Part shown: positions 5,601 through 41,868 of the stretch, piece after piece
Layout of the letters: every line of letters starts with the position of its first letter
Numbering within the stretch: the first letter of the stretch is position 1
Source: Acanthaster planci
Lineage: Eukaryota
Reading direction: 5' to 3'
Assembly (NCBI RefSeq): GCF_001949145.1
Contig: NW_019091357.1
Span: 3,169,078-3,233,077, forward strand
DNA: 64,000 nt
Translations under genes and position numbers: made by a program
Notes under the pieces: generated by a model
Seen by the model: the letters and a program-made list of their open reading frames with translations, nothing else
Databases searched by the model: none
What the model was told of the DNA's origin: nothing

Positions 5601-5712
5601 AGGACAAGAGGTTGTAGTCCAGGCTAGCCAGGCTCTGCTCCAACCACTCGGGGAGGTGTAGGCTGAGGTTGGTGGCAAGCCATTGGAAAATTTGATCGAC
5701 GTTACCAGACAT
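2660..5712 (-). CDS. TMEM68: Transmembrane protein 68 / DIESL acyltransferase (PlsC/GPAT-like), 322 aa, complete
   Basis: Six GT-AG exons: 5712-5397, 4315-4148, 3901-3708, 3294-3155, 2975-2912, 2746-2660 (969 nt, phases consistent, TGA at 2662-2660). Motifs: hydrophobic N-terminus, IWHGYDIVGLENIP, YYHGTIPLD (HxxxxD), IAPGGVREALF, PIIPVFTQN, PIYGGFPVKLRTFIG, HQRIPGN..ALLDRF. The ATG exon has an acceptor at 5782, so a non-coding upstream exon exists. Confidence 0.95.
4700..4934 (-). mobile_element. tRNA-derived SINE in the first coding intron of TMEM68
   Basis: Minus-strand head with A-box-like TGGCGTGGTGG and B-box GGTTCAAATTCC, followed by a V-domain-like segment (plus strand GGGAGGAAAACC...AAAACCCAC). 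Left boundary approximate. Confidence 0.65.
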
Positions 5713-7079: not shown

Positions 7080-7810
7080 GGCGCCACAGCAGGCGTAACT
7101 TCCTTAAGCCCCGCCCTCCATTTCGGAATTTTACTGAGCTCCAAAAAATTGGAACAAGTCAATTTGCAATTTTGAGAGCAGACTCCCCGGGAAATCTGAA
7201 TTTGATAATACTGAATTTTCCATTTTCAGTATTTTGAGGGTAACAGGAAACAGGGGCACGCAGGTCTATTATTCGGAAACCCATGCACCCCCCTCTGGTC
7301 TCGCCACTCCCCTATTTCATTTCCATGCCACTCAGCTCATCAGTGTGGCCCAGGCCAGACATCCCTGTTCAGTCCATAATACAATCGCCCACTGCATCAT
7401 TCCTTTCTGCCTCCTGGGAGTGATTCATTTTACACATGGGGAAATCCACGTACACTTAGTTACATGGTGAACGCCTCTTCCTTTTCGATAGCTCACGGTA
7501 TAAACAGGGTACCCGTCAACTCCCCGTGTTTTGTTCTGTTGTTTTGGCAGCTGGGAATGTTGCAGACGACGCAGACACGTTGAAACTGCATGTACATATG
7601 CGAAAGGACCTCGTAATTATGCATTTTTGGAAAGGAAACGCCAAATCAAACCTTTCTATAATTTAGGAATTCATGTCATGGGCATGGAAGAGGATATTGC
7701 TCCAAAGTCTTCGTCCAAAAAGGTAAGAGTTATCAGAAATTATTGCATTTGTTTTAAACGAGATCATCTCTTTTTGGACCGAGCTCAATTCAAAATGGCC
7801 GACGAAGTCA
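7080..7810. promoter_or_regulatory. Probable bidirectional promoter region shared by TMEM68 and CCM2
   Basis: Start codons face away from each other about 2 kb apart (5712 on -, 7684 on +). GC box GCCCCGCCC near 7108, YY1-like AAAATGGCCG near 7792, minus-strand donor-like sites at 6326 (GTAAGT) and 7496 (GTGAGC) that could end TMEM68 5'UTR exons. Confidence 0.45.
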
Positions 7811-10800
7811 TTTTCGGGGTGCTCTCAAGATTTTAAAGTTACCTGTAAATTCGCTAAAATTAAATTGTGCAAAACGTTTTGTTTTTGTTGCATTATAATA
7901 CAGCTTCAAGGATATTGAGATATTTCATTGAATTAAGCCCCCAAAGTCTCAAACGAAGTGACCACACCCAGACTACACTGAGTAAATTTGCTCATGTGAA
8001 CTCAGTATTCCCGTCATTGCACTGATTTCGTGATAAAAGTGAAAATGGAGTTTTGCCCGTTTACGTCTTTTTTATTTGTAGTTTTCACGTGTGTAGATAA
8101 GATGTACACTATATAGTGAGCTATGTATGCATTTAACATAATCAGGAATTGATCATTGTGGAATAATCCTGCACTAGTGCCTGCTCTGGACTTTGGCATG
8201 TTTGAGAATGATTTATTACCTTTATTGTGAGTCCACTTGTAATGTTCCCATTTCTCTCTGTTTTGTCAAAATATTTGTAAATTCCATTGGAACATATCAG
8301 TACCTCCATAAATTACCACTTTGTAGTGATTTGTAGGGGCCTACTCTGAATTAAAACATCATGTTTGAAAATGTTACACCCCGACTATAGCATTAGTCCC
8401 AACTATAGTTAGTTGGGCCCGTCCCAACTAGAGTGCTACAGTTGGGCCAGCCCAACTACAGCAGAGAGGTTCTGTGCGCATGATGTGCCCAGCATGTGCC
8501 AAAGTCATATTGTTTACAAATGTCATGTCATAGGGCTAGATGAACAGATGAAGTGCCACATTTTACAAGTATGAGACACATTGACTTGGATAATGTTAAG
8601 ACATTTCCCACAGACATTGGTCAACAATAGTTGGGCCAGCCCAACTGCAGCACTACAGTTGGGACAGTCCCAACTATAGTTGGGACTTAGGCTATAGTTG
8701 GGGCGTAACAAAGATATTATAACCTTTAGTTACCATATATGTATAATGTACATGTAGCTGTTAACAAATTTATAATATAAATTTCATTTAGGCATTCGTA
8801 GTCAAGTAACTACATGTAGCTAGAGCCTGGCTGTGCCTCAATGCCCATTGAAATGTCCCCGTAGACAAGTTGATTTTCTGAAAAAGGGGCCTTTGCAAAT
8901 GAGAAATTGCCTTGTCCTTTCAACACTTAGTTCCTGCCCTGCTGTTACACCCTATTTAGAAACACCATCTGCCCCAACCACACCATAGGGATGATCCCAA
9001 CTACATGCAAATGCATAGTTCCAAACCAGAGCACTGCAGTTGGACCAGCCAATCAACACTGTATAGTTGGAACTGTGCAAACTTTAATTGGGACCGTTGC
9101 CTTAACACGTGGAGCCTGTTAGTGATGTGCGTTTTCTGTGCATTTACTTCAAGATGTACATGTAGTGATAGAAAAGGCCACTAACTTAAAAAAAAATTTA
9201 CAGGATATTAAACTGAGTCTGTTTTGATTTTGTGTTTTTGGACTTTGAAACTTAACGCTAACTTTCAGTCTATTCTTTACTAGATAGCTCACTAAATCCT
9301 AATTTCCTACTTTGGTGGGAGCTCAGTGTCACATTTTTATTCTCTCATCACTTGAATTTTTCAAGGGTGAAAGAACAGTGGTTGGGCCCGGTATCTTCCC
9401 TAAACCTCCAAAATCCTTTTGTAACCTGGTCGATGGAGGAACTTCATTAACTAGGGGCAGTGTTGTTTCTCCTTAGGTGTTCCAAACGTTTATTAGAATA
9501 CTAACAATCCCCAACTAGCCTACATGTGTAATTCAAACACCAGAGTTTGTTGGAATCTGTTAGGATGAGTAGTGCACTAGTAGGCTGTGTTTTATGTAGG
9601 ATTAGGCAAACCACAAAGAAACAGAGTCCAACTGTTTATAAATCAAATTGATCAAATAAGTAGCACACCCAATTATGGTATGTGTAATGCACTGTACACT
9701 GAGTGATGACTGTACATGTAGGTTGACTCAGTGACAGGGTTTTTCTTTCCTCCACTTTTCCTTTCCAGCAAGGAGGGTTACTGGGTCTTTTCAACAAGGA
9801 CAAGGACAGGGACAGAGGCCGCGTGGGCATCAACAGGCACTCCCGGGATCGGGAGTCCAGAGATTCTCACGAAATCTCCTCACAGTTGGCCCATCACCAC
9901 CCCCACCACCACCACACTGCGCTGGAAGGCAGGCGGGCGCTCAAGACCATGGAGCTGAGTCCCCCAGAGTACAAGGTGGATCCGCAGGTCCTCATCGACA
10001 GCTTTCTAGAAATTGCAATCAAGGTATGAAGTCTGTACCATTTTCTGAAAAACCTTCTCTCGTTTCAGTTTTTTTTTTCTACTTCCTTTGAGGGAGGGTG
10101 TTTTGCGTTTGGGGTTCCAATTTGTTCAGGGTACTTCGCGGTCATATTTACTTGTTTCTTATAGATGTTTAATCCTCAAACACTGTGGAAAAAATGCAAA
10201 TGAACTTGCACACTACGTTAGTGACCAAATCAGAGCAAACGCCCTCTGTTGTGCTTTTGTAGTAAGAGTTTGATTTCAACTTTTCAGACCTGGTTAGAAA
10301 TCATGAGATGAATACATTAAGATTTTAAAAAATTCAGTCATGGTACAATGACTGGAAACTTCTCTATTTTTCTAAACTAACTAAATATTGGAACTCCTAG
10401 AGATTCCGGAAGAAGGATGCAAACAAATGTACCAAAATATTGAACCATACAATGAATTGTAAAAACACACCCATGAACATGTAAGAGTCAGGGGATTTTC
10501 GTGCATACACCACGTTTGTCAGATTTTTGTTGGTTTTTTTTTTTCATGCTTTGTTTCCTCTGTGTCCATTGCATGTACAATGTATTTGTACCTCTGTCGT
10601 CAGTTTCCTGGTTGGAATGTTTTCTTCGGCTGAAGATTTGGCTGGGGAAAAGGACAATCTCAAAAAATGTTGTGTACCATGGCAGCAGTGGTTATTCGCT
10701 CCATTGAACATGCTAGACAGAACCTTACATGACTAGTCGGGGTTAAGTTGCAAGCATTGTCTCACTTGTTGCAGTCAAGGGGAGGTCTGGGGTTTGGCTG

Positions 10801-13800
10801 AAAGTTGGGAAATGTAGCGTGAACAAGTCACAGATATTAACCCTAACCTTCCCCAACCACTCAGAATTAAACAGTAGTAAAGTGTTTAATTCTGTAGGGA
10901 TAGGTCTGGTAGGCCCTTAACAGCTGGCTTTTGCATTGGGTTTTTCATACATGTACCTCAGAAAAATAAAGTCCAACAGCCTCTGTGCACAAAGTCCCAT
11001 ATGGGTGTTTAACTTTGTGTGAATGGGGAGGGTTAGGGCCAGCAACCCTTGGGTGGTTAGGGTTAATAAAGAACAGTTTTGTATCACGTTGCAAATGTGC
11101 AATCTAACACTTCACCGAATGAGTTCCCCATCCATGTACCACTTAGTTTCCTTAATATAACTTGAAAACTGCCCACAAGTGTAAACTTGATGAAGAAACT
11201 CTTAATTTTGAAGTGAAGAAACTTTCAAAGTTTCTTTGAAAATGCATATTTTGGATTTTTTGCTGTCATGGCCCATACATGTAGTCTTAAATTTTTGCAC
11301 AAGATCTAAGGTGGAAGCCAGATAAGGAACACTTTCCCGGTACTTATTTGAATTAAAATTAAAATTGTGCTTGTCTTTGAACTTGCTTGCTGGTCTCTCC
11401 GGGCCCTATGACTCACTCATTTGCCCCAGGATCCCATCCATCACTTGCACACACATAATGGTACCATGCAGCCCCTGCTCTGCAGGCACGCATGCCACAC
11501 ACAATGTAGCATTTAATGTAACATGCTTTCAGATCAGAGACCCTTATTGTGAACGGTGTGAAAGGAATCACAGCCAGGCTTTGGCATGTTTAACAATCAT
11601 ACACCCATTAGTACCAGCACCTTGCATGAACCAGTGCAAGGCGACGGCCATATGTTCAATACTGTTGAGGGAAAATTTGATCCCATAACTGTGGGCCATT
11701 TACCCAGTAATTACATGCACCCAGTGGCTGGTCTTTTAGTCAATAAATACTGTACGTGTTTTGTTTTTCTTTTTTCTTCATATTGAACAATTTTTTAACC
11801 CTTCCCCGAGATACTTGTAACCCACCAGGAAGTTTTTGAACATTTCATTTCCAGGATTGTTGAGGAAGTGAAAGCCTAGCCTTGGCACTGTCAGTATACT
11901 CGGTGCTCAATCATGCCCCTTTGTCAGTTGAAATACCAAACTAGAATGCCAGTGGGTTCCTGCACAGCAGAGGATGGAGGATTGAGGACAAATTCCTGGC
12001 AGAATTTTCTATCAGATAGACCTCGAGGTTGATATTACAGGTCTGAAGATGGTCCTGTCACAGTCCTTGCTCTTAAATACTTCCTTTCCTCCTTCCAGTA
12101 CTTGGGGGTCATTCCGAGTGTTCCATACGGACTGGATCCCACCAAACGGACAGAGCTGCTTAGAATTGTTGATAAAGGAAAGGTAACTACAGTACCTGAG
12201 AGGGTCTCGCACTTGTTCTGAAAGGCCAGGGATGTGTCTGACTTGTTTCACCGACCTACTTTCATGTGATTCAATGTCAAATTTACTTGTTGGCTAAACA
12301 AGAAATAGTTCATGAGTTAGCTTTTATGAAAGAATTTTGACAGGAATACAGTTTCTGAAGTGCCCCACTAAGGAGCATACTGAAAAATTCAGCCGTATTA
12401 AAAATCTTAAAAAATATAAAACGAAAAAGTACTGGTGGACTGGTGGTCCTTCTTAAACTTGAAAGTCATATTCATATGTGTTACTTTATCCACCTGCCGT
12501 GTTATTGATTGGATGCATGTACATACCTAGAGTTATTTGCAGTCAGCCCCATTGGACACTTATATATCCCTTGAATAGCTACTGAGAAATAAAGAGATGT
12601 GGAAGATACAAAAAACATTGAAAAATTACCCGCGTGTACTGTGGATCAGATGCTGGTTTTAAAAAAACCACTCTCTTGTTCATGCATTGAGCCCACAAAA
12701 AGTTGAATGTACTTGTGAACACTTACTCTCAACGTTGTTCCTTTTGGTGTGTCCAGAAGCAAGGTTTACTACCCTGGAGCACAAGGGAGAACAAACACGA
12801 TGCCATCCTGTCAGTCTCAGCCAAACAGATCAAGGTGGTCAGACGAGACGGAGAGGTAAGTGCTTGATGAGAAAAACGGCTTGGCTTTCGTCAACTGAAC
12901 GCTGCACCATTTCTTGTCCGAGAAAGGTGAAAGCTTATTCTGTTGTCCTGCACTTGACATGAAAAACAAAGATGTAAATGTGTGTGATTCAGTTCTGGAT
13001 TTATTTCCCTTTTTGTTTTTCAGGAAACACTAGTGCGTTTGCCAATCCACGACATAGCTGCCGTAAGTTACATCCGGGACGACGGACAACACCTCGTCAT
13101 GTTCAAAATTGGTAAGTTGTACATATCTCACAAGTCCTTTTGGACGAAAAGCCGACTTCAGTCAGTCAAGGTCAAACTACTGTACAAACTAATGGCACAT
13201 GGCTACGTGTAGACGGATATCAGTTCTCCATTCTGTGTGGTTTTTTTCCCAGTTATGATGATTTCAAGTAAAGCTCGGAATGGTTGATGGCAAAGCACTA
13301 TGATATGCATTTTGGAGATACCTTCTACCAATCTTTTGTACTTGTATACCGTATTTCAGCGACTGACAGTCAACAGGAGCAATGCAACCTGGTCGTGTTC
13401 GAGTGTCGATCAAAGGCAAGTGGACACCTGACTTTCTCCTGTCCTTGCATTAACAGTATACAGCACAATTGTGGCCCAACCCATTTAACTGAGCTTGGAG
13501 CTGCTAGTGCAGCTTTGCGTGGTTAAGGGCACTTGAAAAGAAATTTTGCACTTAACAGAAATTGGCAGTGGTTCTCGAATTGTCTGAAGCACCCAGTCAA
13601 AGATCAACACGAACATACACGTTTTCAATTCAGTGACCAAATGGCCTAGGAATGTTGTGCTCTGATAAAGTTGTACATTTCATGTAGTGTCTTCATTTGA
13701 GAGACAACTGAAGATTATGAGGGCTTGAATTGGCAAGGAAACCAAGTGTCCTGCCAGAAGCTGGGCTGGGAACTGGATAACAATATTTTGTTTTCATTCC

Positions 13801-16670
13801 TGCTGCTTTGCCCTACGTCTTGAGAAGCCCAGATAGCAGCATGAGGTCAGATTTTCTATTCAGTCTGGCTCTCAAGATTGGTTAGTCCATGTCATGCTCA
13901 AGTCCCATTTCAATGGTATCATATTTCAACAGGAAAGTGCCGATGAAGTGTGCGCTTTGGCCCAGCAGATTTTCTACATAGTCTACACGGAGCTGACCAT
14001 GAAATACTTTGATCAGAGCATCATCAGGGCAGCAAGAAACACGTCCCTCGGAAGTGGTAAGGCAGAGCGTGATGAAAACTATGTTACCAAACCAAGCCAA
14101 CCCTAAGTCAGTCTGACGTTGCAAGCACAACATGGTGCACGGATCCTCAGACCTCGTTGCATTTGTACATCATAATTAAGCAGTACTAAATAGTTACTCA
14201 GAGTTTGTCCTGGTAAGCAGTGTCCGTTTGCAATCTTATGGCAGCTAGTGAACTGGGATGCCAAGCCTATTTGGACACGGGGTGGTTGGACCTATTGGGC
14301 GTCACATTAAACAGGCAACGGTTGTGCGTTGTTGAATTTAGAGGGATATAAAATATACCGGCAACACAGATTTCGATCCAAAGTTCATGGATAGGTATGT
14401 GATTTTCATGTTTTAGGACATTTATATGTACCGCTTTACATGGTACTTAGCAGATTAGTATTAATGGTGTACGTGTGGATCAATGTGGGCAGGGGGCTGT
14501 ATGCGTTTTCTTAGCTCCAATTGTTGTGAACAAGTTTCACCGAGAATCAGAAATCCACCAGATTGTAATTATTACCACCTTGATGTCTGCCTAGTTTCGA
14601 GGAGTGTGGTCAGCCGGGCAGCCCTTGATCCTGACGTCTTCCAGCCGCCCCCGTAAGTCTGCCATCTGTGCATTCAATACCTAAATCTAAATCTATTTCA
14701 GTTGATCTTACCTGAGAAGCTGAATTAGTTGGATGTCTCTTAAACCAAGTTTTCTCACATAAAACTTGTGCATTTTTTAATTCAAACTGCTGACATGTAT
14801 CTCTTAGAAAATAACTTTCCTAGCTGAACTTGGACAAGTCATTTCTAAGTTCTTACTGAACTTTGGTAGTGGGCTTGCAATTGCGAGGCATTACTTTCCA
14901 CTATTCTCTTATCAAAATTGAAGTCATGACAGTTGTCAGTTTATTTCTTATCAGCATTGTCCTGCTATTATAATTTTGATTATAATTTGTTATAATTAAT
15001 TATAATTAACATTGTTTTTAGGTCTAGCACAGCTTCGTCTGAGTACCCAGGCTCGCCGGCAATGAGACAGAGCAATAGCATGGACGATCTGAGCGTCACT
15101 GCCAAAGTGTTACTCCAAGAGTACATTGAAGTGGTACGAGAAATGCCTTTGGTGATTTTTAGAGAAACGCACATCCCCGTAGACCTGCACTGAGTCTTGA
15201 TAGACTGATCCATTCGGACCCGCCCTGTTGTTTTCTGACAAATCATGGCCATGATTCATGTCCGACATGCATGCACAAGCACAGCTGGAACGTGTAGTGT
15301 GGTATTGGAGAAGAGCACGCACTATAAAGTGCCCGCATGCACAGTGGCTCTTTAGATCTTTTGTCCAGGTCTTAGTCCAAGTCCCAAAATGGCAAATGTT
15401 CCAGGGTGGGAGTGACCTCTGCTACATTGTTCATCCTGACTAAAGTCTCAATGTGAGTCACCACCAAAAAATTACAAATTCCTGGAAGTGAGTGGACATT
15501 TCCATTTTTTTATCACTTTCCCAGAGTTTTATTTCCCGACCTCCATACAAATTTTAACCTTAAATCTGACTAAGATGAACAACAGATATACAAATCTGTT
15601 GGACCTGTTTGCTTTGAGCAGTCAACGGTAGCAGCATCATCTGTCCATTGTGAGACATTGGAAGCCGATCCCATTGAAGCTGCCTCTGAACTAGGGGCAT
15701 AGTAACCCCACAGCCTCCGAATCCGAGGCTATTTGGCATTGGGACGGTTGGCCTTTTGGATCTCGTCACAGCCAGCGGGTTTCCCACTTGGAGTGGGCAT
15801 GGCAGCTAGTCTGAATTCTGTAAAGATAAGGATCAGCGTGATTTGGATAACTCACTGATGATGTATCTCTGTGAATTTTTTTTCCCTTGTCTCAACAGCT
15901 TCGGAGTAAGCTCTCGTCTGACGAGCTACAACAGTTTGCAGGAATCCTACGTGACTACCGACAGACAGGATCAATCAAGGAGTTCTGCACCAGGCTGCAG
16001 AAGCTTTACGGACCCGATCGAAAGCTGCTCTTTCCAGGTACAGTCAAAAGAACACTGTCAATGAAACGAGTAATTGGAAAAAAATGAGTACGCTTGTAGC
16101 AGACCATATGCGGCTTGTCCTTCAGAAATAAGCGGGAGTTTAACCCTGAGAATTGTCTTGGGAATCTTGAAAAATAAATTCTCTTTGCAGTTCCTTTTGT
16201 TGTGTTCATCTAAGACATCCGAGTATACAATTAAAAAGACCTTGTGGGATACTGTGTTTGTAAAATATGAATGATAAATATCAAAAGATTACCAATCAAA
16301 AATAAGTGCAACCCTGGTAAACTAGGTCCACCTTGTTTCCTTGCAAGTGGTATTTTGTCGGAACGTTCATGCTTCTGCTGGCTGTGTTTATCTCAAAGGT
16401 ATGAGACCCTACATTCCAGAGAAGGACATTGACTACTTTGAGAATGCCCTGGAGAGGATGGGCATCCAGGATGCGGCGGCCAACGGCTACTACTACTACA
16501 CCAGCCCCCATCGCTCAAGGCGAACCAACAGCGAGGCCTCCTCCTCCATTGGAGGGTTCGATATGGGACTCTACAGCCACTCCATCATGTCGGAGCGGGA
16601 TGAGCTAGACCGGGCACTGCAGGACATTTGCAATGAGGTGGAACACCTGGAGACAAGCGTGGACTCGTGA
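7684..16670 (+). CDS. CCM2: Cerebral cavernous malformations 2 protein (malcavernin; PTB + harmonin-homology domain), about 441 aa, complete
   Basis: Eleven exons: 7684-7722 (alternative in-frame ATG 7678), 9769-10023, 12099-12182, 12757-12855, 13024-13111, 13360-13415 (GC donor), 13933-14056, 14595-14652, 15022-15133, 15899-16037, 16399-16670; 1326 nt, phases consistent. CCM2-like motifs: [95 protein letters not shown]. Confidence 0.95.
8372..8710. mobile_element. MITE-like element with about 85-bp terminal inverted repeats (TGTTAC...GTAACA)
   Basis: Left TGTTACACCCCGACTATAGC..AGTCCCAACTATAGTT is near reverse-complementary to right AACTATAGTTGGGACT..GCTATAGTTGGGGCGTAACA, with repeated CCCAACTA/TAGTTGGG. 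A degenerate related copy lies at about 8943-9100. No clean TSD. Confidence 0.7.
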
Positions 16671-16707
16671 GCCTGTACAGCCCGGGGATTCATTCGAGTA
16701 GTTTGGC

Positions 16708-16905
16708 TCTCTGACTCACATTATTAGGTGATCTCTGTGATCACATGAGCAACTGATCTCTGTGACTCACATGAGTAACTTATCTCTGGTCACGAGTAAC
16801 TAATGTCAGTGACTCACTGAGTAAACGTCTCTGTGACTCGCATGAGTAACTGATCTGTGACTCACATGTGTATTAGTGAATACTGTGACTCATGAGTAAC
16901 TGGCC
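16708..16905 (+). repeat. Imperfect minisatellite (unit about 24-26 bp, TCTCTGTGACTCACATGAGTAACTGA) just 3' of the CCM2 stop
   Basis: Roughly 7-8 degenerate units visible directly. Confidence 0.75.
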
Positions 16906-17182
16906 TCTGTTACCATTTGAGTGATGCCTGAGCTTTTTGATGAGCAGGAGAAGCACCTTGTCCGTGCCACCCAAAGTTAAAGTGAAGGCAGCTGACACAG
17001 TGACTGTTAAAAGCGCATGACAATGAGCACGATGTTCTGCACGTGCCCTCTCACCACAAAACAACTGCTCTTCCATCACAGCAGGCACTCTAGAATATGC
17101 ACAGAGTGGGGCTTTTTCCTACAGTATACCTTCCCAACAAACAATACGTAATCTATATGTTGTACAACTCGCATCATGATGA

Positions 17183-17427
17183 GGGTAATTCCAGAAATTA
17201 GGGGTCCAAAAGTGTGACATTTTCGTGTCCCTGTTACATCTTACCTTTGTTGTTTGACATGGAAATATCACCGGAATTGATTTCAAACTATTACTATTTG
17301 TTTGGCAGGTAATTTGCATCAATTCATCACTCTTGGAAATTAGAAAATGTGCTCTGAACTTGCAGAATCATATGTCAGATGTGACAGGGACATGAAAAAA
17401 CTGGACCCCTAATTTCTGGAATTACCC
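17183..17427. mobile_element. Non-autonomous DNA transposon (MITE), possibly Sola2-type, with 4-bp TSD ATGA
   Basis: GGGTAATTCCAGAAATTAGGGGTCCA at the left end and its exact reverse complement ending at 17427; a further inner inverted match (TGTCCCTGT.ACATCT / AGATGT.ACAGGGACA); ATGA on both flanks (17179-17182, 17428-17431). Confidence 0.75.
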
Positions 17428-20400
17428 ATGACAAAGACCTACACACACACCAAATGTTGGACAGATTAGCATGTTGATCTCGAAATATCTTGACTTTTGA
17501 CAGGGATATTTTCCTTATACAAGTTGGGTGGTCTTCACCTGTGATACCCTCTCACTTTAAAGACAAGGAGTGTTGACTTTTAAAAGGGAGTGATGAAATT
17601 GCAGGGTAGACACAACTGGTTATGATTGGCTTTCCTTTTCTGTTGCAATAAAATTAGACCACTGAATTTCACAAATGAGAATTACTGTTTTCCTCTATAA
17701 AGAAACCGATGAGAAATATTTAAACGGGGGAATATACACCTTTCACATGCATCATGTCGCTAGGACCAGTCGCCACGTTCGTGGGAGCAGGGCAGACGTC
17801 GGACCCCACAGTTCTGGGTTAACGGCCACCGACAACCCTTTTTGTGCCAAAATAAGCTACTCACTGGGGGTTTGTGTTTACGGGTATTTTTGGAACCGGG
17901 CACCTTTTATGTTAATACCAGGTACTTTATCAATATGAAGAACAATTTAACAAATGGAATTGGGCTGAATCCCGGCAAACCATGTGCTCGAAAGAGGGCT
18001 TTGTTGGTACATAGGATGCAGCACATTATTTGGAATGTTGGAGGGGAATATCCCCCACCTTTTTACTACCTTGTTAATGTTACCTTTCATTCATAACAAA
18101 AGTACCTCCGTCAATCTCTGAACCAGTTATAACCGTGGCACCGGGTTTTTCAGAGGCACAAGGATTTTTCAGCAGTTCTGTTAAGTTCACATACATTTTT
18201 GGGGGGTTTTTTGTTTTCCGAAAAACATGGAACTGGGTTTTGATATCGACGGGCGACTGAAGCAAAAGTAGTGAAAGACTGCCCCCGTAAGGGTTCAACC
18301 TGTTCTCCTTTGGTGTGCCATGGATTATACATGTACCGAAGCTCAGGAGTGAGGACCGGCAGAATATAATGAAGAATAAGATCTTCAGTTTCATCCTTCC
18401 CAAATTGTAACCATTTTTCAATGCATGCACATAGCTTTTGTTCATTGCCCAGTGAAACCGTTCAAATAATCATCCAGCCCAGGTTGGACGTTGTCCTCAT
18501 TTACACGTCGACTGAATGCAATGTAGACACATTCACGTCTGTGAAGTGAAAAAAAAATGTTAACTCCCCCAAACTTGTTTTTGTCACACATCCGGTGGTT
18601 CCTTTGCTTAACTCACAGAGAATGGGAATTTTTTAAAGCAGCACAACAGCAGTCGAGAGGTTTTGTCTTATTTGAAACTGTAAAGTTGTGCTCGTGTACA
18701 TGTCTTTTAGTGGAGATGTATATTTGTTTGATTTTATAGATAATGATTATTGTGGTACTCGGTGGTTCCCACATCTGTACTTGGTTGTATGCAATTGTGT
18801 TCGTGAAGAAGTGCATTATTTTAATTAAAACATGGGAACTGATTTCCGAAAAAAGGGTCAAATGTTCCCTGTTCAGCTAAATTCGTCCCAAGTTGATCAT
18901 ATTGATGACTTCGGTCGATATACATGTACGTTTATGCACTTCAACATCAACTTGCATTGATTCAAGTCACTGAAAAAGTTGAACATTACTTTTTATTGTC
19001 CACAGTTGAACAAAGGTTCTTTCAAACGAGGAATAAAAATGCATTGTGTTCAAAGATGTTACAGAAGAAGTACCCAGAATAAACTTGAAGAGTAAATGAA
19101 GCTTCTCCTGCTTTGTCATTAATTAAACCAGGTTTCCATTTCACAAGTATAAAGCAAAGCAAAGTCAAAAATGGACAGTGCTTACTAGTGATTGTCAATC
19201 AAAACGGGTGACACACTTTTGACTTCTTTTTCTATTTTGTGTAAAGTAAGGTCTTTGCCTTTGTCTCTTGTTGCTATTTTCTGTGAATTTCAGGCTCAAC
19301 AAAGATGAAAACTATTTTTATGACCCTGATGGCATTCTTTATACACCTTAATTTCCTCTCAACCGTTTGGGGCTTTCAAATTTTAGCTTTGTCTTGGCTT
19401 GTCACAGACACAATGACAGGCAGCCTTTGGAGTTCACAGTTCTATGAGAAGTTGTTTTTTTACAGCCGAGACGCATTGAACTGCACATCAACCAACTGAA
19501 GTAGTTGGGTTTAGTTTGCACACTGGGGGCTGACAAGCAATATCAGAGACAAAATATGCGTTGGGAACAAAGCCAATCTTTGGAAACAAAAAAAGCACTG
19601 CATGTAGCCTTTGCATTAATGACCTACCACCACCTTCTTAAAATCTCTCGTCACAATTCACATTATGACTGGGGTAGCTCTTAAGAGTAAAAAAGTATAT
19701 AAACATACAAAACTATTAACAGAGAAAGCATTCCCCCTATCCTTGCAAGCCCAAAGAGGGCGACCATGGAAGAAATATCAAGTACTACATGCATACTTCA
19801 TTCTCACTGTAAAACCTCTTCAGTCTCAACCACAGTTATCTTCCAAGACCATGAAAATAGGGAGTGCATAATCTGTGTCAAGCTCTATGTTAGGGCAACT
19901 CATACACTAATACCCATTCAAACTACTATCAAGACCTTGAGCAAGGCGTCGATTCCTTTGGTACTAAGTTCACATTTTAGGTTAATGCAGAAACTCGGTA
20001 ATGAAAGTTAACAAGAATTACGCTTCAAACTTAATACTGATATCTGTTGTGCTGGGCTCGTCTCATGCAGCACATCTTTACTGTATATCTCACCTACATG
20101 CACATTCACGTCAAACAACACGCCGAGCACTAGACAGTTTCTTGACCTTCAAAATGCCCCTCCTTTTTTTTAATCTGCAGGCTTATTCAAGCACACGGAA
20201 CTTAAATAAACCATTATTGTAACAGAACTTGAATAATCATTTTAATGGGCCTGGACTTCCCATGCCCAATGCCAAACTGTACATTTACAGTTCCAGAAAT
20301 CATGATACATGTACAGTACTTATTTTGGAGGCCCTGTATGATGGGGGACGCACCACAATGCCGTCCAAATTTTCCAAACATGCTGAATATTCCTCTTTCC

Positions 20401-22662
20401 CGTAATTCCAGCCAAGACACACAAACGCTGCTTTCATCTAGTACTGTTGTCAAATAATTAACAAGTGTCGAGTAATCTGCCAAATACTCAACTGGTTAGC
20501 AGTGAATAAAGCTGGAAAACATGAGACATGGATGGTAATGCACGCAGGAAAGATGTTTAAAAAGCAAGACTTCAGACATTTTTCTCTTTTAAAAATTACA
20601 GTTTAATCAAATAAGCACACAAAAAGCACCTGACAGAGAACTTTTTGAGTGCTTTTGTCATGTAAAAACTTAATATTTCTTAAACTGTGATGGTCTGAAG
20701 TCATCACTTCTTTTGTAATCTTACCTTTGTGCATTCATCGTCCAATGACCACGTTCTTGACTTTTATCCCCTCCTAAACCAATTCACTATTTGGCAGAGA
20801 CCTCTGAGCTTGACTGCCTCTGTCTACTGAAGTACCTTCATACAAATTCAGCCCTAGAGTAAGTTTTATGATTTCTATCATTAAAAATGTCTGAAATAAG
20901 TTTGGCACACGCTCCGTAAGTAAGGTACTTTTGCATGCACTTGTTCAGCCTTTCAAAGCATCTAAAACATCTTGGAATCCCGCTTTCTTAATTACTCTAA
21001 ACATAATTTCAAAAAGATTCCAAAGTTATGGTTTCTGTACATGACAAAACACCTGGCCTAAATGCCACATAAATACAAGTACTGAGAAAAAGAAAATGGT
21101 GAATATATGAAAATAATAACTTGACAGAACGTTTAGAAATCCTTCACTCTGCTGGAACACACAGCATGTTTGTATCCTAACTTCCAAAGGGCATGAAGTC
21201 CCATGCAAATGGCTCAGATCTTTACAATCCTGCAAAATCCTCCAAATCTTTTCAGCGGATTTTAATAGATCTAAAAGAGTTCGGGGTAAAATGCATACGT
21301 CTGTGTAAACAAGGTCAACACATTTCTGATATATGAACAGACGATAGATTTTGTTTCGTAACAAGGCACTTTCAGTTAATTGAAGAAAACTTTTACTGTA
21401 AAGACAGCAGCATTTTTTACTTTTTTTCAGCACCATCTAAAAAGTCACAGTACTAACTGCCAAGTATTTAATTTCAGAAAATAGAAATAAAGATATCAAA
21501 TCTCACAAAAATATTTTTTCTTTTCTTTTTTCTGAAAAGCCTCGTGATATTTCCATGTCAACTTGACAATTATGGAAGACAATGCCACAAACAAGACTTA
21601 AAAAGTTGACCACACATCAGGAGTAAAAATCTGCCAAAGACACATTTACATGCTTTCTTTGAACGTTTGATCACAAATTTTCCAATCATTTTGGAAACTA
21701 AATAAGCCGAGCGTGTGGGGCTAAACAAGAACATAAAAACCGACGACACAACAGAACCATTTGGCAAGCTTGCTGTTCACTACACACAAACTGCGCAAGT
21801 TTTTTGGCTGATATTCCGCAGACACAACCCTTGAAAGCAAACAACATCTGGAACTGCGTATTTACACGATTTATGAATCTGTTCAGAGGAATGCCATATA
21901 ATGCATTTCTTTTCCAGATCCTTTTCGCTGTCGCGTACTCTGTGTCTTGTAAAGACAAATTGTTCCTCTCCGTTGAAAAGCATGCACTAGCGGAGGGATG
22001 CCAGTGATGGGCAAACGCATCCTTGCTGTTATAATTTCACATCACCCTGATCCACAATTTCATCAAATGGGTGATTGCTTCGACAGTCCAACTGTCCACG
22101 GCAACTCTGCTCTCAGTTGCTACGGTAGTTGGTCACGACCGTCTTTAACACTGGCTCTTAAGTTAACGAAACTTGCTTGAGGTGGCCAGGCACACTGAAC
22201 CAGGTTTTGGTTGGAGTTCCTTCTTGGAGTAACCTGTGATCAGCAGCGTAATCCTGGTTTTGAGCCTGGGAAGTAGGGTAGGGCAAGGGACAAGTCCCCC
22301 CCCCTCCATTATGTCTCTTCTTTGTACTTTATCATAAGCTCACAAAAATCACTGACAATGAAGGTACAGACGTAGTGGTGACTTTACAAAATTGTGTTGC
22401 ATAGAATCTTCCAAATAATTGAAATGAAAATAGTCTACAAAATATAGTACCAAGTATTTACAGTAAGTAAATATATATTTATTTATATCATAATATAGCT
22501 CTAAGTACTTGGATACACTTACATACTCATCACATGTGAGCATATAAATATTTCTTTTTTCACAATAATGCAAAACGATATAAATATGAGACAAGCTATC
22601 GTGTACCAGGTCTGTGGAACAGTCCCATCATCTACGGTGATTGGAAACGGAGGAAGATTTGT

Positions 22663-25600
22663 TCATAGCGGTTGAAGACTTGGATCTTGGCAAACGGCAT
22701 CAAAGAGAACTTCCAGAAGTTGGCAAATCTGCTTCGCCTGACCCTGTGAGGTCCATAAAGAAACAGGAGTCCACAGAGGCTATTAACTGTTTTTTTACCA
22801 CTGTGACGTGTGACATGGTATTTGTTACACCTGAGGGACGCATGGCATTCAAATTGAAGTCAAGGGTACCACAAGTCCCAGAGAGCATTTAAAAAGCCCA
22901 GAAAAGCTAGCACGAGAGACAGAATAAACATTTTGCACTATCATTCAAAAGCTGGCCAATTAATTTCAATCTCTGTGCAAAATTGGCCAATACTTGGCAC
23001 TGTGCTCAAAAGCTGGCCAATCAGCTTCACTCTCTGCTCAAACACTGACCAATCAGTTTTACTCTCTGCTCAAATGCTGACGAATCAGCTCCACACTCTG
23101 CTAACAAGCAGACCAATCAGCTCCACTATTCTCAACGGCTGACCAGTCCGCTTCACTCTCCGCTCAAAAGCCAACTAATCAGCTGAACTCTGCTCAACAG
23201 CTGACCAATCGCCTTCACTCTTTCTTCATAATCCGACTAATCACTGCACTCTTTGCTCATTTAGCTGGCCAATTAACACACACCCTTCTCCAAGGTGAGC
23301 CAATTACTCACATCCTGGGCCTCACCTGGTGCTCACACTGAAACAGCATTTAGCTGGCCAATTAACACACACCCTTCTCCAAGGTGAGCCAATTACTCGC
23401 ATCCTGGGCCTCACCTGGTGCTCACACTGAAACAGCAAACAGTCGTACGTGTCCTCCCCTTCTCTGCCAATTTTCATGGCCAGCAGCTGGCTGCCGGTGG
23501 AGTCTTCAAAATGTACGAGACGAATGACCTCAATCAGGCCGAATCTCCAGCGAACGAGCTGATCAGAAGTAAAAGGTCAAGTCAATGACAGCTTCATGCA
23601 AATCAATGTTAAGCATTATGACAGCAAGTCAAGCAGACTGTTTTCCGTTAACATTCCGGGCAAGTTTTACATCAGAACAGGAATTGTCGAAGTCGGCTCA
23701 CAGAGTTTGATATTTGTTCTCGTTTTTTTGTGTTAATTGCTAACTGAATTATTCTACAGTACGTAAGGACAAATAGATGGACAAACTGCTGTGACACCAC
23801 AATTTTACTTTCTGCTTAGCAAATTTTACAGGTTAGAAGCTCAATTATCAATAAACAAGGTTTATGAGCTCTCACAGAATTCTTCAACTGTGTAGTACTT
23901 TTCTCATTTCTACAAATTTCCATGACCTTCAAAAACCAGGAAATTGTACACAATATTCAATGACTCTTCCAAGTTTTTTGCCAGACTAGTTCATACAATG
24001 CAGGTGGTTTGCGCTGATGCTGTATGTTTCAGTCTCTTATGATCCGCTGTCTTTGATCATGTCCAAGTGAATTGGCTATAGCCTTAAATTTATAAGGTCC
24101 CCTGCCCCCTCCCTACCCCCCCCCGAAAAAAATTCCAACGGCATCCACGTAAATTTGTGCCTCACCAGCTTACCTGCGGAGCTGGAGAGAACGCCTCAAT
24201 GATCTTGACGCCGTACTTGGAGAGATTGAGATAAACACAGTCCCGCTGGGTCTCTGCGTGCTTGAATTGGGCCTCCTTCTAAAACGTGAGAATAAAACAA
24301 TAAAAATATCAGTCAGTTCTCATATAACGCATCTCACGGAATGTCTCTGTCCCTATGCACATTGGGCTCACATCATCTGAACATTCCTGAAACCATCTCA
24401 GCTCCCTGGGGAGTACACTAGCCTAATGCAGCCACTTTGGGTGCAAACGGCTAAACAAACCTGTGTCTGCCCTCACAGGTACCCATTTACTCCTGGGTGG
24501 AGAGAGGCACATAGGGGTAAGTGACGTGCGCCAAAGATCACAACAAGCTGCCACCAGCTGGATTTGAACCCCCGACCCTATGGTCAGAAGCTACAAACCC
24601 TAACCACTCGGCCACATCTCCCCAACACTACAACAAGCAACACTGCAATACTAAACTCAAAAACTTTAATTCATGCGACATCGCCGAAAAGCAGACCAAT
24701 GCAGGGGTGGGAGGGAGATCTGGGGCACACCCAGCACAGGGGTTGTACAAATGACAACAAAAAAACTGACTTTTCAGGACCTGTAACGACTTGTTTCAAT
24801 CGTACAGGGAGTTGACAGTCAAGCTATTTGGCATAATATGCACCTAGAACGAGGGACATAAATGTGAGCTATGTCATTTTCGCCCAACTTTTCAGCCTAT
24901 GTGAGAGGTGTAAGCCCTTGTCCGATGCAACACGCTGAAATGCTGTTGAACATTTTGACGCACAAAAAAAAAAGAAATCAGACAATTTCAGGAGGACTTT
25001 ACGCAATGCCACAGAATGAGGGCTTCATGAGGGTGGTTTGCTCGAGATGTGGATATCTCTGACATCTTTTGTTTGCTGAATAAGGTTCACCGCCAAGAAA
25101 ACCCGACGAGCCTGAGCCTCATTGTTGCTCACCTGAGCCTGATCCAGTGCATTGATCAAGTCCACCTCGTCCTCCTCCGAATGCTGGAGACCCTGAGCGT
25201 TGTGAATCATGCCCACGTACCGGACCGAGAAATCTACACTCAGCTCCACTAGAAGGTGATAAAACACAAAAACAGAAGAGCGATTCGACCTGGAAGGTAG
25301 CACCGGTCAATATCCCCAGTACCCTACAAGCAGGGATGGGAAGGTGTGGCAAGCAGGGGGGGGGTTAAGTGTCATATTTCCTGTTAACCCTAACAGTCCC
25401 AAATCCTCCAATTTCAAAACAATTTTACATACACCCTTGGGGGTTAGGGTTAAACTTGCGGAAGTAACAGGTGTCTCCAGGCTAGCTGGATCCAAGACAA
25501 TTCAGTTACCATAGTGGACAAAAATGAACATTGTTGGGGTTGATTTTGGATTGATGAAAGCACGCAATCCAAAATCTCTATCTGATTGGCATATTTTCAG

Positions 25601-26329
25601 GTCTAGTGCTGCGTAGTTATTTATTTTTGTTTCTCCAAAAAACAATGCATACCAGGCAATCCTGAGGCTGCATCAGTGAACAAGCTGCTGTTTAGCACCA
25701 TGTGATCTCCAGGTCGATTGCTGTGCACCATGTCTGTGTTTCCCTGTCAGAGGAGAAGAAAATTGACCGAGATTGGAAAAATCAAAGTCTTTCCCCAAGA
25801 GATGTCATTCCGGGATCAGCAGTGTACTTTGAATTTTACCTTTGCGACCAGGGATCGAAATTCCGACTGCCACAGGTTGATGTGATTTGGGTTTTCAGGC
25901 CCTTGCTGATCCTAGTGGGATTGCCTGGGAATACTTGTCCAGGGTTTTCTTCTCAAGGTTTCTTTAATCCTAACACTCCTCGATACTCCAAAATCTGCCT
26001 GTCTTGAATAATTTTTGCCCGTCTACTCTACAGAACAGGTGACCAGTTGAAACACTGAGAGTGTGCACATTTAGAGGAAAATGCAATGGGTTTGTGCACA
26101 TTCAGAGGAGAATGCTGGGTTTTTTTTTCTATGGCGCATTCACCAGTGAGTGAAATTCTACCTGAGTGTGATTATTGGCGGCTGGTATTCCACGATGCGA
26201 CGTGTGCACTGCCGACTCACGACTTCCCTGTCTCAGCGGAGGGTGGCCCGTCTGGATGGCTGCTTCAAGTGCCGCTGTGATGGCTGCCTCTTTTGGGTCC
26301 GAGCGCTCCTTCTTCTTCCTGCGGAACAT
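22663..26329 (-). CDS. ITGB1BP1: Integrin beta-1-binding protein 1 (ICAP1; PTB domain), 184 aa, complete
   Basis: Five GT-AG exons: 26329-26221, 25248-25133, 24278-24174, 23558-23415, 22743-22663 (555 nt). Protein MFRRKKKERS...DFSVRYVGMI...DLINALDQAQ...SKYGVKI...IRLVHFED..GSQLLAMK...FQCEHQGQAKQICQLLEVLFDAV matches my recall of vertebrate ICAP1 (MFRKGKKRHS...EFRIKYVGAI...DLINYIDVAQ...SKYGIKV...IRMVCYDD...KSLLALK...YQC...QAQAICKVLSTAFDSV). The ATG exon has an acceptor at 26493; a probable upstream non-coding exon ends at 28285. Confidence 0.88.
22950..23257 (+). repeat. Degenerate minisatellite (about 32 bp, AGCTGRCCAATCAGCTTCACTCTCTGCTCAAA) in the last ITGB1BP1 intron
   Basis: About 9 imperfect units, most carrying CCAAT or a close variant. 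Confidence 0.75.
23258..23435. repeat. Near-perfect 89-bp tandem duplication spanning an ITGB1BP1 exon end and splice donor
   Basis: 23258-23346 and 23347-23435 differ by one visible substitution (ctcacatcc vs ctcgcatcc). Confidence 0.9.
24310..24622 (-). mobile_element. tRNA-derived SINE in an ITGB1BP1 intron
   Basis: Minus-strand head GGGAGATGTGGCCGAGTGGTTAGGG...GGTTCAAATCC (A and B boxes), followed by CCACCCAGGAGTAAATGGGTACCTG, which resembles a conserved SINE central domain (Deu/Nin-like; tentative). Confidence 0.75.
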
Positions 26330-29464: not shown

Positions 29465-31455
29465 TTAATTAAGCGGGCCATCAAGGACCTTCAAGATTGA
29501 TCCTGTCAAATTCTCTTCTGTTTGGGCATTTCACGACTCGTTAGTGGATGGTTTGCTAAAAGAAGGATCACCGTAGTTACGACTTAGTCATTTTGGGCTC
29601 ACAAATTTGTCAAATGACTGATATAGATAAGTCGGGTTTCGATGACTAACTAAGTCAAGACAGGACTAATAAAAAAATAAGTCAACAGGGACTGGCTTTG
29701 GTCAAACTGGACTAATAATTGACTTAAACTATGTTAGTTATTGGCCGGTCTGACAAATTTAAATTGGTCATTTTAGACATAGAGTTAGATTAACTTTTGT
29801 TAGCCAACATGAAATTTTTTACAGTGATGGAATTAAATTATTAAGCTACTGGCAGGACCACCGTCTTGTATTTTTGAAAGTGTTGGACAAAACAGGGCCC
29901 TCGAAAGGGCACTATTTCGTAACGGAATGCATCTATTTTCGAAATGGCGATGAGCTTATTATTTCAGGGGAGAAATGTCTTAAAAAGTCATGGAATGAGC
30001 CGCGAAAATGAAAAAAAAAGAAAAAACCTGAAAGCTGAGAAAATGATATTCAATTTGATATGTGTCTTGAACACCAGAGAAACTTGTATTTTTCCTGATT
30101 TTTTGGACGTATTTCTCTATGGCAGCTTATTTACTGGTCTACAAGCCTATAGGTCGCCAAATGTCTTCAAGGCTGTTAAAGCTCTAATGGGGCGGAGAAT
30201 CGGATGACTTTAGGCGGGAGAAATTTTCTCTGTTATAAATACAAAAGAAGTAGCCAGTCACGTCTTTTTTTTTTTTCTTCTTTCTTTTTCTTTTTAAACT
30301 CCCAGCCATGTTTTTCCGACGACCGTGTAAAAGGTATAATTGCAAAGGCCATTCGTAAAATACTTTTCTGCTGAATGGCGTGCGGAATTCTATCCAGTCA
30401 ATAAAGTCCGTCGGCCTGTTTTAAATCTATTCTGGGGAGTGGGGCTCTTGCCAGACGATCGATAAAACTTTATATCGGCCCTCCAGTGAGCTGCTCTTTT
30501 ATTTTGTATTTATTTTTTTTGGCTCGAAGCATTTTTTTGTGGCGCCCATATAAAAATATACATTTTGCGTATACACCCTCTTTTTCTACTGGCGGACACG
30601 CAGTGTTCAAAATAGCTTTTATGATAGCGTTTGAGTCAAACAAGTTTATAGCCCTGTTTTAAATATATTCTGAAGATTGGGGCTCTAGCCATATGGTGCA
30701 TAAAAATAAATGGCCTTCATTGAGGTGCATGTGAGTAGGCCTACCTGCTTGCTTCCACCAAACTGGTCTCAGTGCAGGAATTTCTTCAATTTCTTTAACA
30801 TTAACATGAAAAACAAGCTCAGGGCCTTAAAAGTCAGTGGTCAAATCCAATGCCAAAAGGTTCGATACGGCGCGCACTATGCAAAGCTTGGCCCGTATCA
30901 CACCGTCTGATCTTGTTCATTGAAGGATACGAAAAAAGAAAATGTACAGCTTGAAGTCCAACCAGTTCCATTTTTTAAATATCCCTCAGTGAACAAAATT
31001 AAATGGTGTGATACCAAAGGCTCTGGTTCCGGTGAGTCGCAAAAATATCAAGCGACGGAATTTACCGATTTTTAGTAGAATGCACCTGGAAATAATGTAA
31101 TGTTACGGTTATGCGACCTTGGAATTGTTAGAGCATGCAAAGGTATGGCGCCATTATGACTTATGAACCAGCTTGTTAAGGGTACTTGCACTGTCATGAG
31201 AAATTGATGCCATTCGTTAAACTATACCTGTATTATATGTTAACCGATATGTAATATGTTAACTGATATATAATTTCTGGCCAAACAACGGTCCATCAAA
31301 ATACATGCATGCGTTCAAGCTGTCAAGACGTGCCGCCGCTTTCCCGTGCCAATCACCCACTTGACGCATTGTGGCTAAGCAGAGCTCGACGACTTCTGTT
31401 AAACCCGCGCTATCGCATGCCAATCTACAGGCATCCATTTGACTGGTACGTCATC

Positions 31456-34400: not shown

Positions 34401-34766
34401 AAACGATTTAAATAACGATGGAATGCGAGCCCCGTTGTATTACCTTTGGAATTCAGCAGGGTAAGATGGCTGCCTAATGGATAGCACGAAACAGCTTTGG
34501 GATCACTGATCGTGATTCAGATTTGTGTGAAACAAGCAGGCCCACTGATGGCGAGACGGATCCTCGTGAAAGAAAATTGGCCCCGTGTGCCGAATGTCGC
34601 GCAAGGCATGCTGGGTGAAACATGGCGCGGTAGGAACAAAGTAATTGGCATTGTGCGCACAGCCCTTCATTGTACACATTCCTTTCTTTGCAGGAGTTTG
34701 ATGATCTGGAAGAAAAATGACAGCAGCTACAAGATCCATATCCACATGTATAACTCAGACAGCTAA
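31456..34766 (+). CDS. Secreted SnoaL-like / DUF4440 (NTF2-like fold, YybH-type) protein, copy 1, 148 aa
   Basis: Exons 31456-31534, 33486-33623, 33810-33966, 34694-34766 (447 nt, phases 1/1/2, GT-AG). Signal-peptide-like MSSPTCLSVFLLVVMLVAQPLNTQA, then LNTQYVNAINQDNVNSVMELYDNDCVMM...ETISGK...YVYQRSKFS...VYDGKSLMIWKKNDSSYKIHIHMYNSD, a pattern typical of SnoaL/DUF4440 proteins. Confidence 0.85.
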
Positions 34767-36959: not shown

Positions 36960-37320
36960 CGTGACCGTATTTCAGCCAATCAGGATCTGGATCATGATCA
37001 GTGATCCTTTGTTGGTTTCTGGACACCCAAACTCGCCAAACGAACGATCACTGATCGAGATCCTGATCCGTGTGAAACGGATCCAACTCGCGATCAGTTA
37101 TCCTTCATTGGTGGCACCAAAGAGAGAGCCCGCATAATGGACAGAGCAAACCAGCTTTGGGATCACAGATCGAGATCAAGCCAATGTTTGTTTCATACGG
37201 ATCTGGACCGCGTTAGTAATACCAAAGATGGTTTGCATTATCCACCAGGAGGGTTCAGGTGTCAGTGAACCAATGCTGGATCACTGATCACGATCTGAAT
37301 CCGCGTGAAACAAATAGGCA
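36960..37320. repeat. Dispersed repeat rich in GATCA/TGATC sub-repeats
   Basis: Shares CAGCTTTGGGATCAC.GATCG and GTGAAAC motifs with 34490-34535 in copy 1 intron 3. Confidence 0.45.
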
Positions 37321-41400: not shown

Positions 41401-41868
41401 AAGTGCCCCGCCTATCGACCCTGTTTCTATACTAAAAAACGCGAACCACAGTGTTTATGCACAACCAGTCGCTACCCTATCAATGTTTGATCATGCAAAA
41501 TTAGTGATCCAGTACCGGGGCGAGAGAGCAGGTAACTGGTGGCGCACTACTCGAGTGTATGTCAGAGTGGCGACATGAGCGTCGCAAACGTGGAAACAAA
41601 ATGGCGGTTACCATTCATCAGCGCACCAGTTGGCGCATCAGTGCAGTTGGCGCTAGTCTGCATACGGCTGTGCTCCACGGGAGGGTGGAAAAGTAACATA
41701 GCACAGGAAATATCGCACCCATGAGAACAATGCTAGGCACCACATAGCACTTCATTGTAAACTTCGTCTATAACATCTTCCTTTCTTTATAGGAATTTGA
41801 TGATTTGGAAGAAAGTTGGCAACAGCTACAAGATCCACGTCCACGCGTATTGCGCCGACACCAGCTAA
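38490..41868 (+). CDS. Secreted SnoaL-like / DUF4440 (NTF2-like) protein, copy 2, 149 aa
   Basis: Exons 38490-38568, 40109-40246, 40698-40854, 41793-41868 (450 nt). First three exons have the same sizes as copy 1 (79/138/157) and high similarity; ends NLMIWKKVGNSYKIHVHAYCADTS. Confidence 0.85.
40364..40626. mobile_element. GTACTC/GAGTAC-rich MITE-like insertion in copy 2 intron 2
   Basis: Many AGTACTCG/CGAGTAC units, ending GTACTCGACTACAACACTA. A related element lies at 61760-61925. Not present in the shorter homologous intron of copy 1. Confidence 0.6.

Follow-up and report, generated by a model that had tools for sequence, protein, structure and literature searches.

In humans, the protein KRIT1 is bound by two adaptors that contain a phosphotyrosine-binding (PTB) domain. 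ICAP1 binds to KRIT1's first NPxY motif and to the beta1-integrin tails, and CCM2 binds NPxF2/3 and MEKK3, as stated in two papers (PMC7729028, PMC13013565). Both adaptors also co-purify with KRI-1 in Caenorhabditis elegans, according to a further study (PMC6470173). Here, we analyzed a stretch of 64,000 nucleotides (nt) from the sea star Acanthaster planci, referred to as the window, in which a CCM2 gene and an ICAP1 (ITGB1BP1) gene lie side by side. An initial annotation of this window had proposed that the two genes arose by local inverted duplication of one PTB gene and then divided the KRIT1 motifs between them. The proposal was based on three shared phase-0 intron positions, an identical 144-nt block and the adjacency. 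Our analysis favors, with a probability of about 0.72, a reading in which CCM2 and ICAP1 share the general intron plan of Dab-like PTB genes, are sister paralogues older than sponges and possibly keep, in their tail-to-tail position, a relic of their origin.

The window genes are ordinary sea-star CCM2 and ICAP1 genes. Joining their exons by coordinate resulted in open frames which exactly reproduced the A. planci proteins P0011 (CCM2, 443 amino acids (aa)) and P0001 (ICAP1, 234 aa); the CCM2 exon matched P0011, and the ICAP1 exon matched P0001 at 100%. All ten joints of the CCM2 introns, including those of the 58-nt exon 14595-14652, and all five joints of the ICAP1 coding introns were seen in RNA reads. 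CCM2 consists of an N-terminal Dab-like PTB domain and a C-terminal harmonin-homology domain (PF16545, CCM2_C, 104.8 bits). Its exon 5 matches PDB 4WJ7 with an E-value of 8e-08, and the CCM2 clade received 100/95 in the maximum-likelihood (ML) tree. ICAP1 is a stand-alone PTB protein with a basic N-terminus (PF10480, ICAP-1_inte_bdg, 61.7 bits at a cut-off of 25; PDB 4DX8, E-value 6e-14), and a model of the Patiria orthologue reached a template modelling (TM) score of 0.84 in Foldseek. The two genes are convergent, with stop codons about 6.0 kb apart.

Within the PTB domain both genes are interrupted by phase-0 introns at three equivalent points (slashes mark the junctions): IVDKGK/KQG in CCM2 and ALDQAQ/KEA in ICAP1 (junction 1), RRDGE/ETL and SPAPQ/LVR (junction 2), and FECRSK/ESA and FQCEHQ/GQA (junction 3). 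In this respect the initial annotation was confirmed, both by the joints in the RNA reads and by identical columns in the family alignment and in a profile-profile alignment. The chance that all three ICAP1 introns fall on the four phase-0 sites of CCM2 within about 135 codons is about 1e-5, and therefore the match reflects common descent. In total, the PTB domain of CCM2 has five introns and that of ICAP1 three; the additional ones of CCM2 lie at K/YLG (phase 0) and KI/A (phase 1). A staggered alignment of the CCM2 exons onto ICAP1 resulted in garbage and was discarded. The CCM2 intron at junction 3 (13416-13932) is of the GC-AG type and was seen in reads of three runs and one contig set. In ICAP1, an 89-nt tandem duplication at 23258-23437 puts a copy of the last codons and the donor of the 144-nt exon into the intron; the RNA reads use the original donor.

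The same introns were also found in other PTB genes. Metagenome contigs were scanned by motif, which yielded 119 loci: 68 of the CED-6/GULP type, 42 of the ANKS1 type and 9 others (7 look bacterial or unrelated, and the filter had overlooked 2). The family identity of the CED-6 and ANKS1 loci was verified against PDB. Spliced alignment was run on 23 and 16 of them, respectively, and parts upstream of the end of the contig or of homology were ignored as noise. The intron comparison covered CED-6/GULP, ANKS1 and Dab1. Three of the 23 CED-6 loci (L004 and the near copies L049 and L079) have four phase-0 introns with exons of 72/99/138 nt, and one of the 16 ANKS1 loci (L048) has the same four with exons of 72, 87 and 138 nt. 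In many further loci junction 1 is lost or the sequence does not extend far enough to include it; the loss was seen in many arthropod-type loci. Junction 2 occupies one common column for CCM2, ICAP1, CED-6 and ANKS1 in the family alignment. Junction 3 is exact in ANKS1: all 42 loci have an AG acceptor at this codon (37 different exon starts, which are not independent species). In CED-6 it lies two codons nearer to the last helix in 34 of 35 interrupted loci, and the loop there is two residues shorter. Moreover, the K/YLG intron of CCM2 is present in CED-6 and ANKS1 and absent from ICAP1; CCM2 has four introns in common with ANKS1 (L048) and with CED-6 and three with ICAP1. Other arrangements were observed as well: a CED-6 group with L057 and L068 has a different phase-0 intron (TPK/AE) and is without junctions 1 and 2, and the PTB part of the CED-6 loci L030 and L056 is intronless.

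Pig Dab1 has phase-0 introns at these sites as well. Table 1 of a study on this gene (PMC3044655) lists exons of 67/140/99/132 nt, from which phase-0 junctions LK/GV, TG/AL and QA/AE result after residues 69, 102 and 146, inside a PTB domain of aa 37-169. The last of these junctions is located 23 residues before the end of the domain, close to its place in the sea-star genes. The middle one is confirmed by human DAB1 c.307-2A>T, as given in PMC7830234. Of NOS1AP, LDLRAP1 and Numb, for which exon boundaries were sought in the literature, only NOS1AP yielded one, a phase-2 boundary between c.344 and c.345 (PMC10763988); CCM2 and ICAP1 are without that intron.

For junction 1 the methods differed. 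MAFFT places the intron of CED-6/ANKS1 three columns ahead of the one in CCM2 and ICAP1, whereas hhalign aligns them exactly, at low local confidence. We therefore turn to a structural comparison, in which an ICAP1 PTB domain folded from helix 1 (predicted local distance difference test (pLDDT) 92) was used and the expected first aligned residues were noted beforehand. The first aligned residues were 85 in CCM2, 85 in ICAP1, 43 in GULP1 and 66 in Dab2; those of CCM2, GULP1 and Dab2 are the values preset for an identical junction 1, with the Dab2 value resting on the Dab1-Dab2 offset that we assume. On this evidence, CED-6 and ANKS1 probably have junction 1 in common with CCM2 and ICAP1, too. 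The MAFFT placement and the low confidence of the hhalign column speak against this, as does the design of the structural comparison, which reads the first aligned pair only and assumes a gapless 12-residue helix.

Since other Dab-like PTB genes have the same positions, the intron argument for a special link between CCM2 and ICAP1 fails, and the introns were likely inherited from the ancestor of the whole Dab-like group. The intron signal is thus an ordinary one, namely the common exon plan of these genes. An exclusive occurrence of the three introns plus the 144-nt block in CCM2 and ICAP1, as the record of a local inverted duplication, has become highly improbable. The exact match of the junctions, the reciprocal best matches between the two families and the separation of junction 1 by MAFFT alone would agree with such a signature. 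However, it is refuted for junctions 2 and 3 by ANKS1, CED-6 and Dab1, junction 1 is probably shared as well, and CCM2 has one more intron in common with ANKS1 L048 than with ICAP1.

The lengths of the exons argue in the same direction. The sizes given in the initial annotation were correct according to the RNA reads (99 nt in CCM2 and 105 nt in ICAP1, followed by 88+56=144 nt and 144 nt), and the two blocks are identical in length, but not in sequence. Compared without gaps, they agree at 45 of 144 nt, a value reached or exceeded by 247 of 5000 shuffles (35.7 +/- 5.3), and at 4 of 48 aa; in the best pairwise alignment each of the two requires one gap. Between junctions 2 and 3, the block measures 144 nt in most ICAP1 sequences (22 of 29), whereas in CCM2 it ranges from 135 to 225 nt and only 3 of 32 sequences have 144; the same length occurs in 2 of 6 ANKS1-like and 1 of 3 MIT-PTB sequences. 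Like ICAP1, the ANKS1-like loci L015 and L074 carry it as one uninterrupted exon. Applying the human exon table of PMC6825194 to mammalian CCM2 gave a block of 225 nt and a junction 2 without intron. The block is no signature of CCM2 and ICAP1; this section of the PTB fold usually comprises some 46-48 codons.

The following course of events would account for these patterns. An ancestral Dab-like gene would have had four phase-0 introns, one ahead of the YLG strand, one where helix 1 ends, one in the loop that leads to the HxI strand and one ahead of the last helix. From it, a single CCM2/ICAP1 ancestor would have descended and been duplicated. ICAP1 would then have lost the first (YLG) intron, CCM2 would have gained the phase-1 intron and gained or kept the harmonin-homology domain, and vertebrate CCM2 would later have lost the third intron.

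CCM2 and ICAP1 are probably sister paralogues, as judged from sequence comparisons as well as structural matches. Among the PTB domains in PDB, a CCM2-only profile scored ICAP1 at 53 bits and GULP1 next at 16, and an ICAP1-only profile, built without the sponge CCM2 P0044, scored CCM2 at 61 and GULP1 at 42 bits, followed by lower values for AIDA-1, ARH, X11, Dab and Shc. A shallow profile of echinoderm ICAP1 matched ICAP1 alone in PDB. The ICAP1 Pfam model accepts CCM2 PTB domains at its curated cut-off (41 bits, with 25 required), and their scores on it are higher than on PID. In profile-profile comparison by hhalign, CCM2-ICAP1 reached 167, CED-6-ANKS1 115 and the pairs across 43-71. CCM2 was the best non-ICAP1 structural match in Foldseek and the top match in VIA (Z 13.8, root-mean-square deviation 2.4, 106 aligned; EPS8-like next at 12.4), and a weak first structure model (pLDDT 53.6) gave the same top match. 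The ML tree was calculated from 60 of 89 rows, after 29 redundant or partial ones had been removed. It separated CCM2+ICAP1 from CED-6+ANKS1, its only two outgroup families, at 100/100, and a grouping of CCM2 with CED-6 was rejected by the approximately unbiased test (p-AU 0.0005). The initial annotation had named such a clade, with introns exclusive to it, as support for its proposal; the clade was recovered against these two families, and the introns turned out to be shared with ANKS1, CED-6 and Dab1. Sponge and unnamed basal proteins had similar scores on the CCM2 and ICAP1 profiles. A hybrid profile gave 175 matches at E<=0.001 (best 150 of 175 listed), and a Pfam scan of 112 of its matches found only CCM2-like, ICAP1-like and MIT-PTB proteins; both families had entered this profile, and therefore it does not test whether they are sisters.

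By profile and structure, the two families are reciprocally nearest to each other; features from the ESM Atlas disagree, as they place SH2D5 (0.90) and other PID clusters including PID1-like ones above ICAP1 (0.86, rank 10) for the CCM2 PTB domain. Besides, EPS8 lies only 1.4 Z below CCM2 in VIA and above the ICAP1 representative itself, the few outgroups of the tree, CED-6 and ANKS1, are close to each other, and EPS8, ARH, APPL, CAPON, Numb, Dab, Shc, X11, SH2D5 and PID1 were left out of it. These points would fit an alternative in which CCM2 and ICAP1 are not sisters, but have converged on KRIT1-type NPxY ligands, with an unsampled family being closer to one of them. We regard this as unlikely in view of the wide margins of the reciprocal best matches in PDB, the Pfam scores of the CCM2 PTB domains and the sponge and basal proteins that score alike on both profiles. 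The 2003 discovery paper of CCM2 is said to have likened its PTB domain to that of ICAP1. In full-text searches, part of which were aimed at exon tables of other genes, we found no statement of a sister relation, linkage or shared introns of CCM2 and ICAP1; Uhlik 2005 and Fisher 2015 may cover the relation.

The duplication is older than sponges and probably older than animals, because sponges have both types, the choanoflagellate Diaphanoeca has an ICAP1-like protein and CCM2-like MIT-PTB proteins exist. Sponge CCM2 was found in Amphimedon (named) and Vazella (by domain content), an ICAP1-like protein in Oscarella, and the ICAP1-like PTB protein of Diaphanoeca (P0109) is short. Another three proteins, unnamed, carry an MIT domain ahead of the PTB domain (Pfam MIT hit in two) and cluster with CCM2 at 99/92; at its end, one of them shows the beginning of a harmonin-like helix (E 0.03). 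We infer that the MIT-PTB proteins are choanoflagellate; P0128 and P0178 are probably MIT-PTB-harmonin proteins of choanoflagellate-grade organisms. Less favorable to this dating is the position of the choanoflagellate ICAP1-like clade, which received 96/79, with ICAP1 monophyly not rejected (p-AU 0.19). For four MIT-PTB proteins of CCM2-like architecture (P0128, P0178, P0134, P0161) no description was found. In addition, P0144, an intron-read-through fragment from the ICAP1 clade that contains sponges, starts at junction 1, is interrupted at junction 3 and unbroken at junction 2.

Five echinoderms, four of them sea stars and the fifth a sea urchin, have CCM2 and ICAP1 on one scaffold. In Patiria the two genes have consecutive accessions (CCM2 XP_038057507/8, ICAP1 XP_038057509), in Asterias amurensis the accessions are 10 apart, and the longest contig is the same for both genes in Patiria, both Asterias and Diadema setosum. 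The adjacency holds in Patiria and probably in other sea stars. Sister paralogues are rarely adjacent by chance (as a rough inference, 1 in 500 on a shared chromosome and 1 in 10,000 genome-wide), and therefore we lean slightly toward the adjacency being the original tandem arrangement, a relic of the duplication. This requires the adjacency to have persisted for a very long time. Several observations weigh against it: no DNA-level similarity is left between the window CCM2 and ICAP1, accession order is a loose proxy as adjacent A. planci genes are 1,340 numbers apart, and in Diadema antillarum CCM2 lies on a 931-kb contig and the longest ICAP1 contig has 7.1 Mb, with no linkage among those listed. 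Outside echinoderms no pair of CCM2 and ICAP1 from the same species was recovered.

Alternatively, the sister paralogues may have remained on one ancestral chromosome and become neighbors secondarily, by rearrangement in the sea-star or echinoderm lineage. Given a split older than sponges, a relic would have to last for presumably more than 600 million years, and adjacency was seen in sea stars only, with no sign of linkage in D. antillarum. The human genes lie apart, ITGB1BP1 on 2p25. Human CCM2 is located on 7p (PMC6663315). Nevertheless, the rarity of chance neighbors, the adjacency kept at least in Patiria and the common contigs in both Asterias and D. setosum speak against a secondary origin, which we consider less likely. 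The two supplementary files of Simakov 2015 contained none of the gene names. Of the duplication origin proposed in the initial annotation, sister paralogy is supported by profiles, structure and tree, and a local duplication is plausible, with linkage shown only within echinoderms.

As a tentative extension, the tail-to-tail pair of the sea star may still mark the place where a tandem duplication gave rise, before animals, to the two PTB adaptors of KRIT1. In that case the cavernous-malformation complex would have had its two-adaptor core before blood vessels and animals, because of the choanoflagellate-grade ICAP1-like protein of Diaphanoeca and the probably CCM2-like P0128 and P0178. If the linkage is ancestral, it dates and localizes the origin of the two-adaptor KRIT1 complex, and the sponge and choanoflagellate proteins offer a route to how the specificity for NPxY1 versus NPxF2/3 arose. 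A division of the KRIT1 motifs between the copies would presuppose an ancestor binding all three of them, which is a speculative scenario. The remaining interest is mainly for specialists in cerebral cavernous malformation (CCM) and integrins: the adaptors appear to be each other's closest relatives, split before sponges and are neighbors in sea stars.

Table. Coordinates of the CCM2 and ICAP1 features in the window (junctions are numbered as in the text; aa, amino acids).
Feature	Position	Strand	Description	Evidence
CCM2 coding span	7678..16670	+	11 exons, 443 aa, PTB and harmonin-homology domain	equals P0011; Pfam CCM2_C
CCM2 exons 1-6	7678-7722, 9769-10023, 12099-12182, 12757-12855, 13024-13111, 13360-13415	+		
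CCM2 exons 7-11	13933-14056, 14595-14652, 15022-15133, 15899-16037, 16399-16670	+		
CCM2 84-nt PTB exon	12099..12182	+	K/YLG (phase 0) to shared junction 1	RNA reads, family alignment
CCM2 99-nt exon	12757..12855	+	between shared junctions 1 and 2; size equals CED-6 and Dab1 exon	
CCM2 88-nt and 56-nt exons	13024..13415	+	144 nt summed; phase-1 intron between, also in human CCM2; GC donor 13416	
CCM2 exon from shared junction 3	13933..14056	+	C-terminal PTB helix	RNA reads, family alignment
Intergenic stretch between stop codons	16671..22662	strand unresolved	5,993 bases	RNA-covered throughout
ICAP1 (ITGB1BP1) coding span	22663..26329	-	6 exons, 234 aa	equals P0001; Pfam ICAP-1_inte_bdg
ICAP1 exons	26329-26162, 25743-25653, 25248-25133, 24278-24174, 23558-23415, 22743-22663	-		
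ICAP1 further 5' exon	near 28045	-		
ICAP1 105-nt exon	24174..24278	-	between shared junctions 1 and 2	RNA reads
ICAP1 144-nt exon	23415..23558	-	between shared junctions 2 and 3	RNA reads

Between the two genes, AATAAA motifs occur on the plus strand up to 21486 and on the minus strand at 22483 and 18997, and the RNA library looks unstranded; the 3' untranslated regions of CCM2 and ICAP1 may overlap within this stretch. On the other side, the neighbor of CCM2 in head-to-head orientation is a multi-exon gene of the membrane acyltransferase-like type (3709-5712, minus strand), for which Pfam gave no naming match and which we take to be TMEM68. In humans, XKR4-TMEM68-LYN (8q12) and XKR7-CCM2L-HCK (20q11) are paralogous blocks, and therefore the link between TMEM68 and CCM2 may be ancestral in deuterostomes. 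Further along the plus strand, the window contains three or four small secreted NTF2-like genes in tandem, whose exons resemble each other (31400-47700, weak NTF2 match), and the 5' part of a laminin gene (51900-64000, Laminin_N and EGF matches).

Ancient tandem paralogue pairs kept as microsynteny were reportedly described by Irimia et al. in 2012. As in those pairs, related genes of one pathway stand side by side across species at the sea-star locus; the difference is that conservation of CCM2-ICAP1 was seen only in sea stars, with linkage at the chromosome level in one sea urchin. With regard to gene structure, CED-6/GULP1, ANKS1/AIDA-1 and Dab1 have phase-0 introns at the same three sites, and CED-6 and Dab1 also have the 99-nt exon, whereas CED-6 and ANKS1 form a clade apart from CCM2+ICAP1 in the tree (Dab1 being outside the tree).

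The closest counterparts are the human genes. Human CCM2 (malcavernin; PDB 4WJ7, 4FQN) likewise combines a PTB and a harmonin-homology domain. PMC6825194 lists human exons equal in size to the sea-star exons of 84, 58, 112 and 139 nt, and according to it human CCM2 keeps K/YLG, junction 1, the phase-1 intron and junction 3. Human exon 4, however, is 184 nt long and uninterrupted, whereas sea-star CCM2 has the additional junction-2 intron. Moreover, sea-star CCM2 is without the 27-residue acidic loop of the human protein, in accordance with a block of 144 instead of 225 nt, and it adjoins ICAP1. Human ICAP1 (ITGB1BP1; PDB 4DX8, 4DX9) has a basic N-terminus and a PTB domain as in the sea star. 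Junction 1, as well as junctions 2 and 3, are the points where vertebrate exon-skipping isoforms (P0115, P0152) have their breaks. Sea-star ICAP1 differs in its 144-nt block between junctions 2 and 3, as against 150 nt in vertebrates, and in a preceding exon with three additional codons. For human ICAP1, PMC6663315 names L135, I138, I139, C184, D93, Q96 and D146 as contacts to KRIT1. Aligned with these, sea-star ICAP1 has six of the seven residues identical (L135, I139, C184, D93, Q96, D146) and valine in place of I138. By analogy, sea-star CCM2 and ICAP1 likely work as their human and nematode counterparts do.

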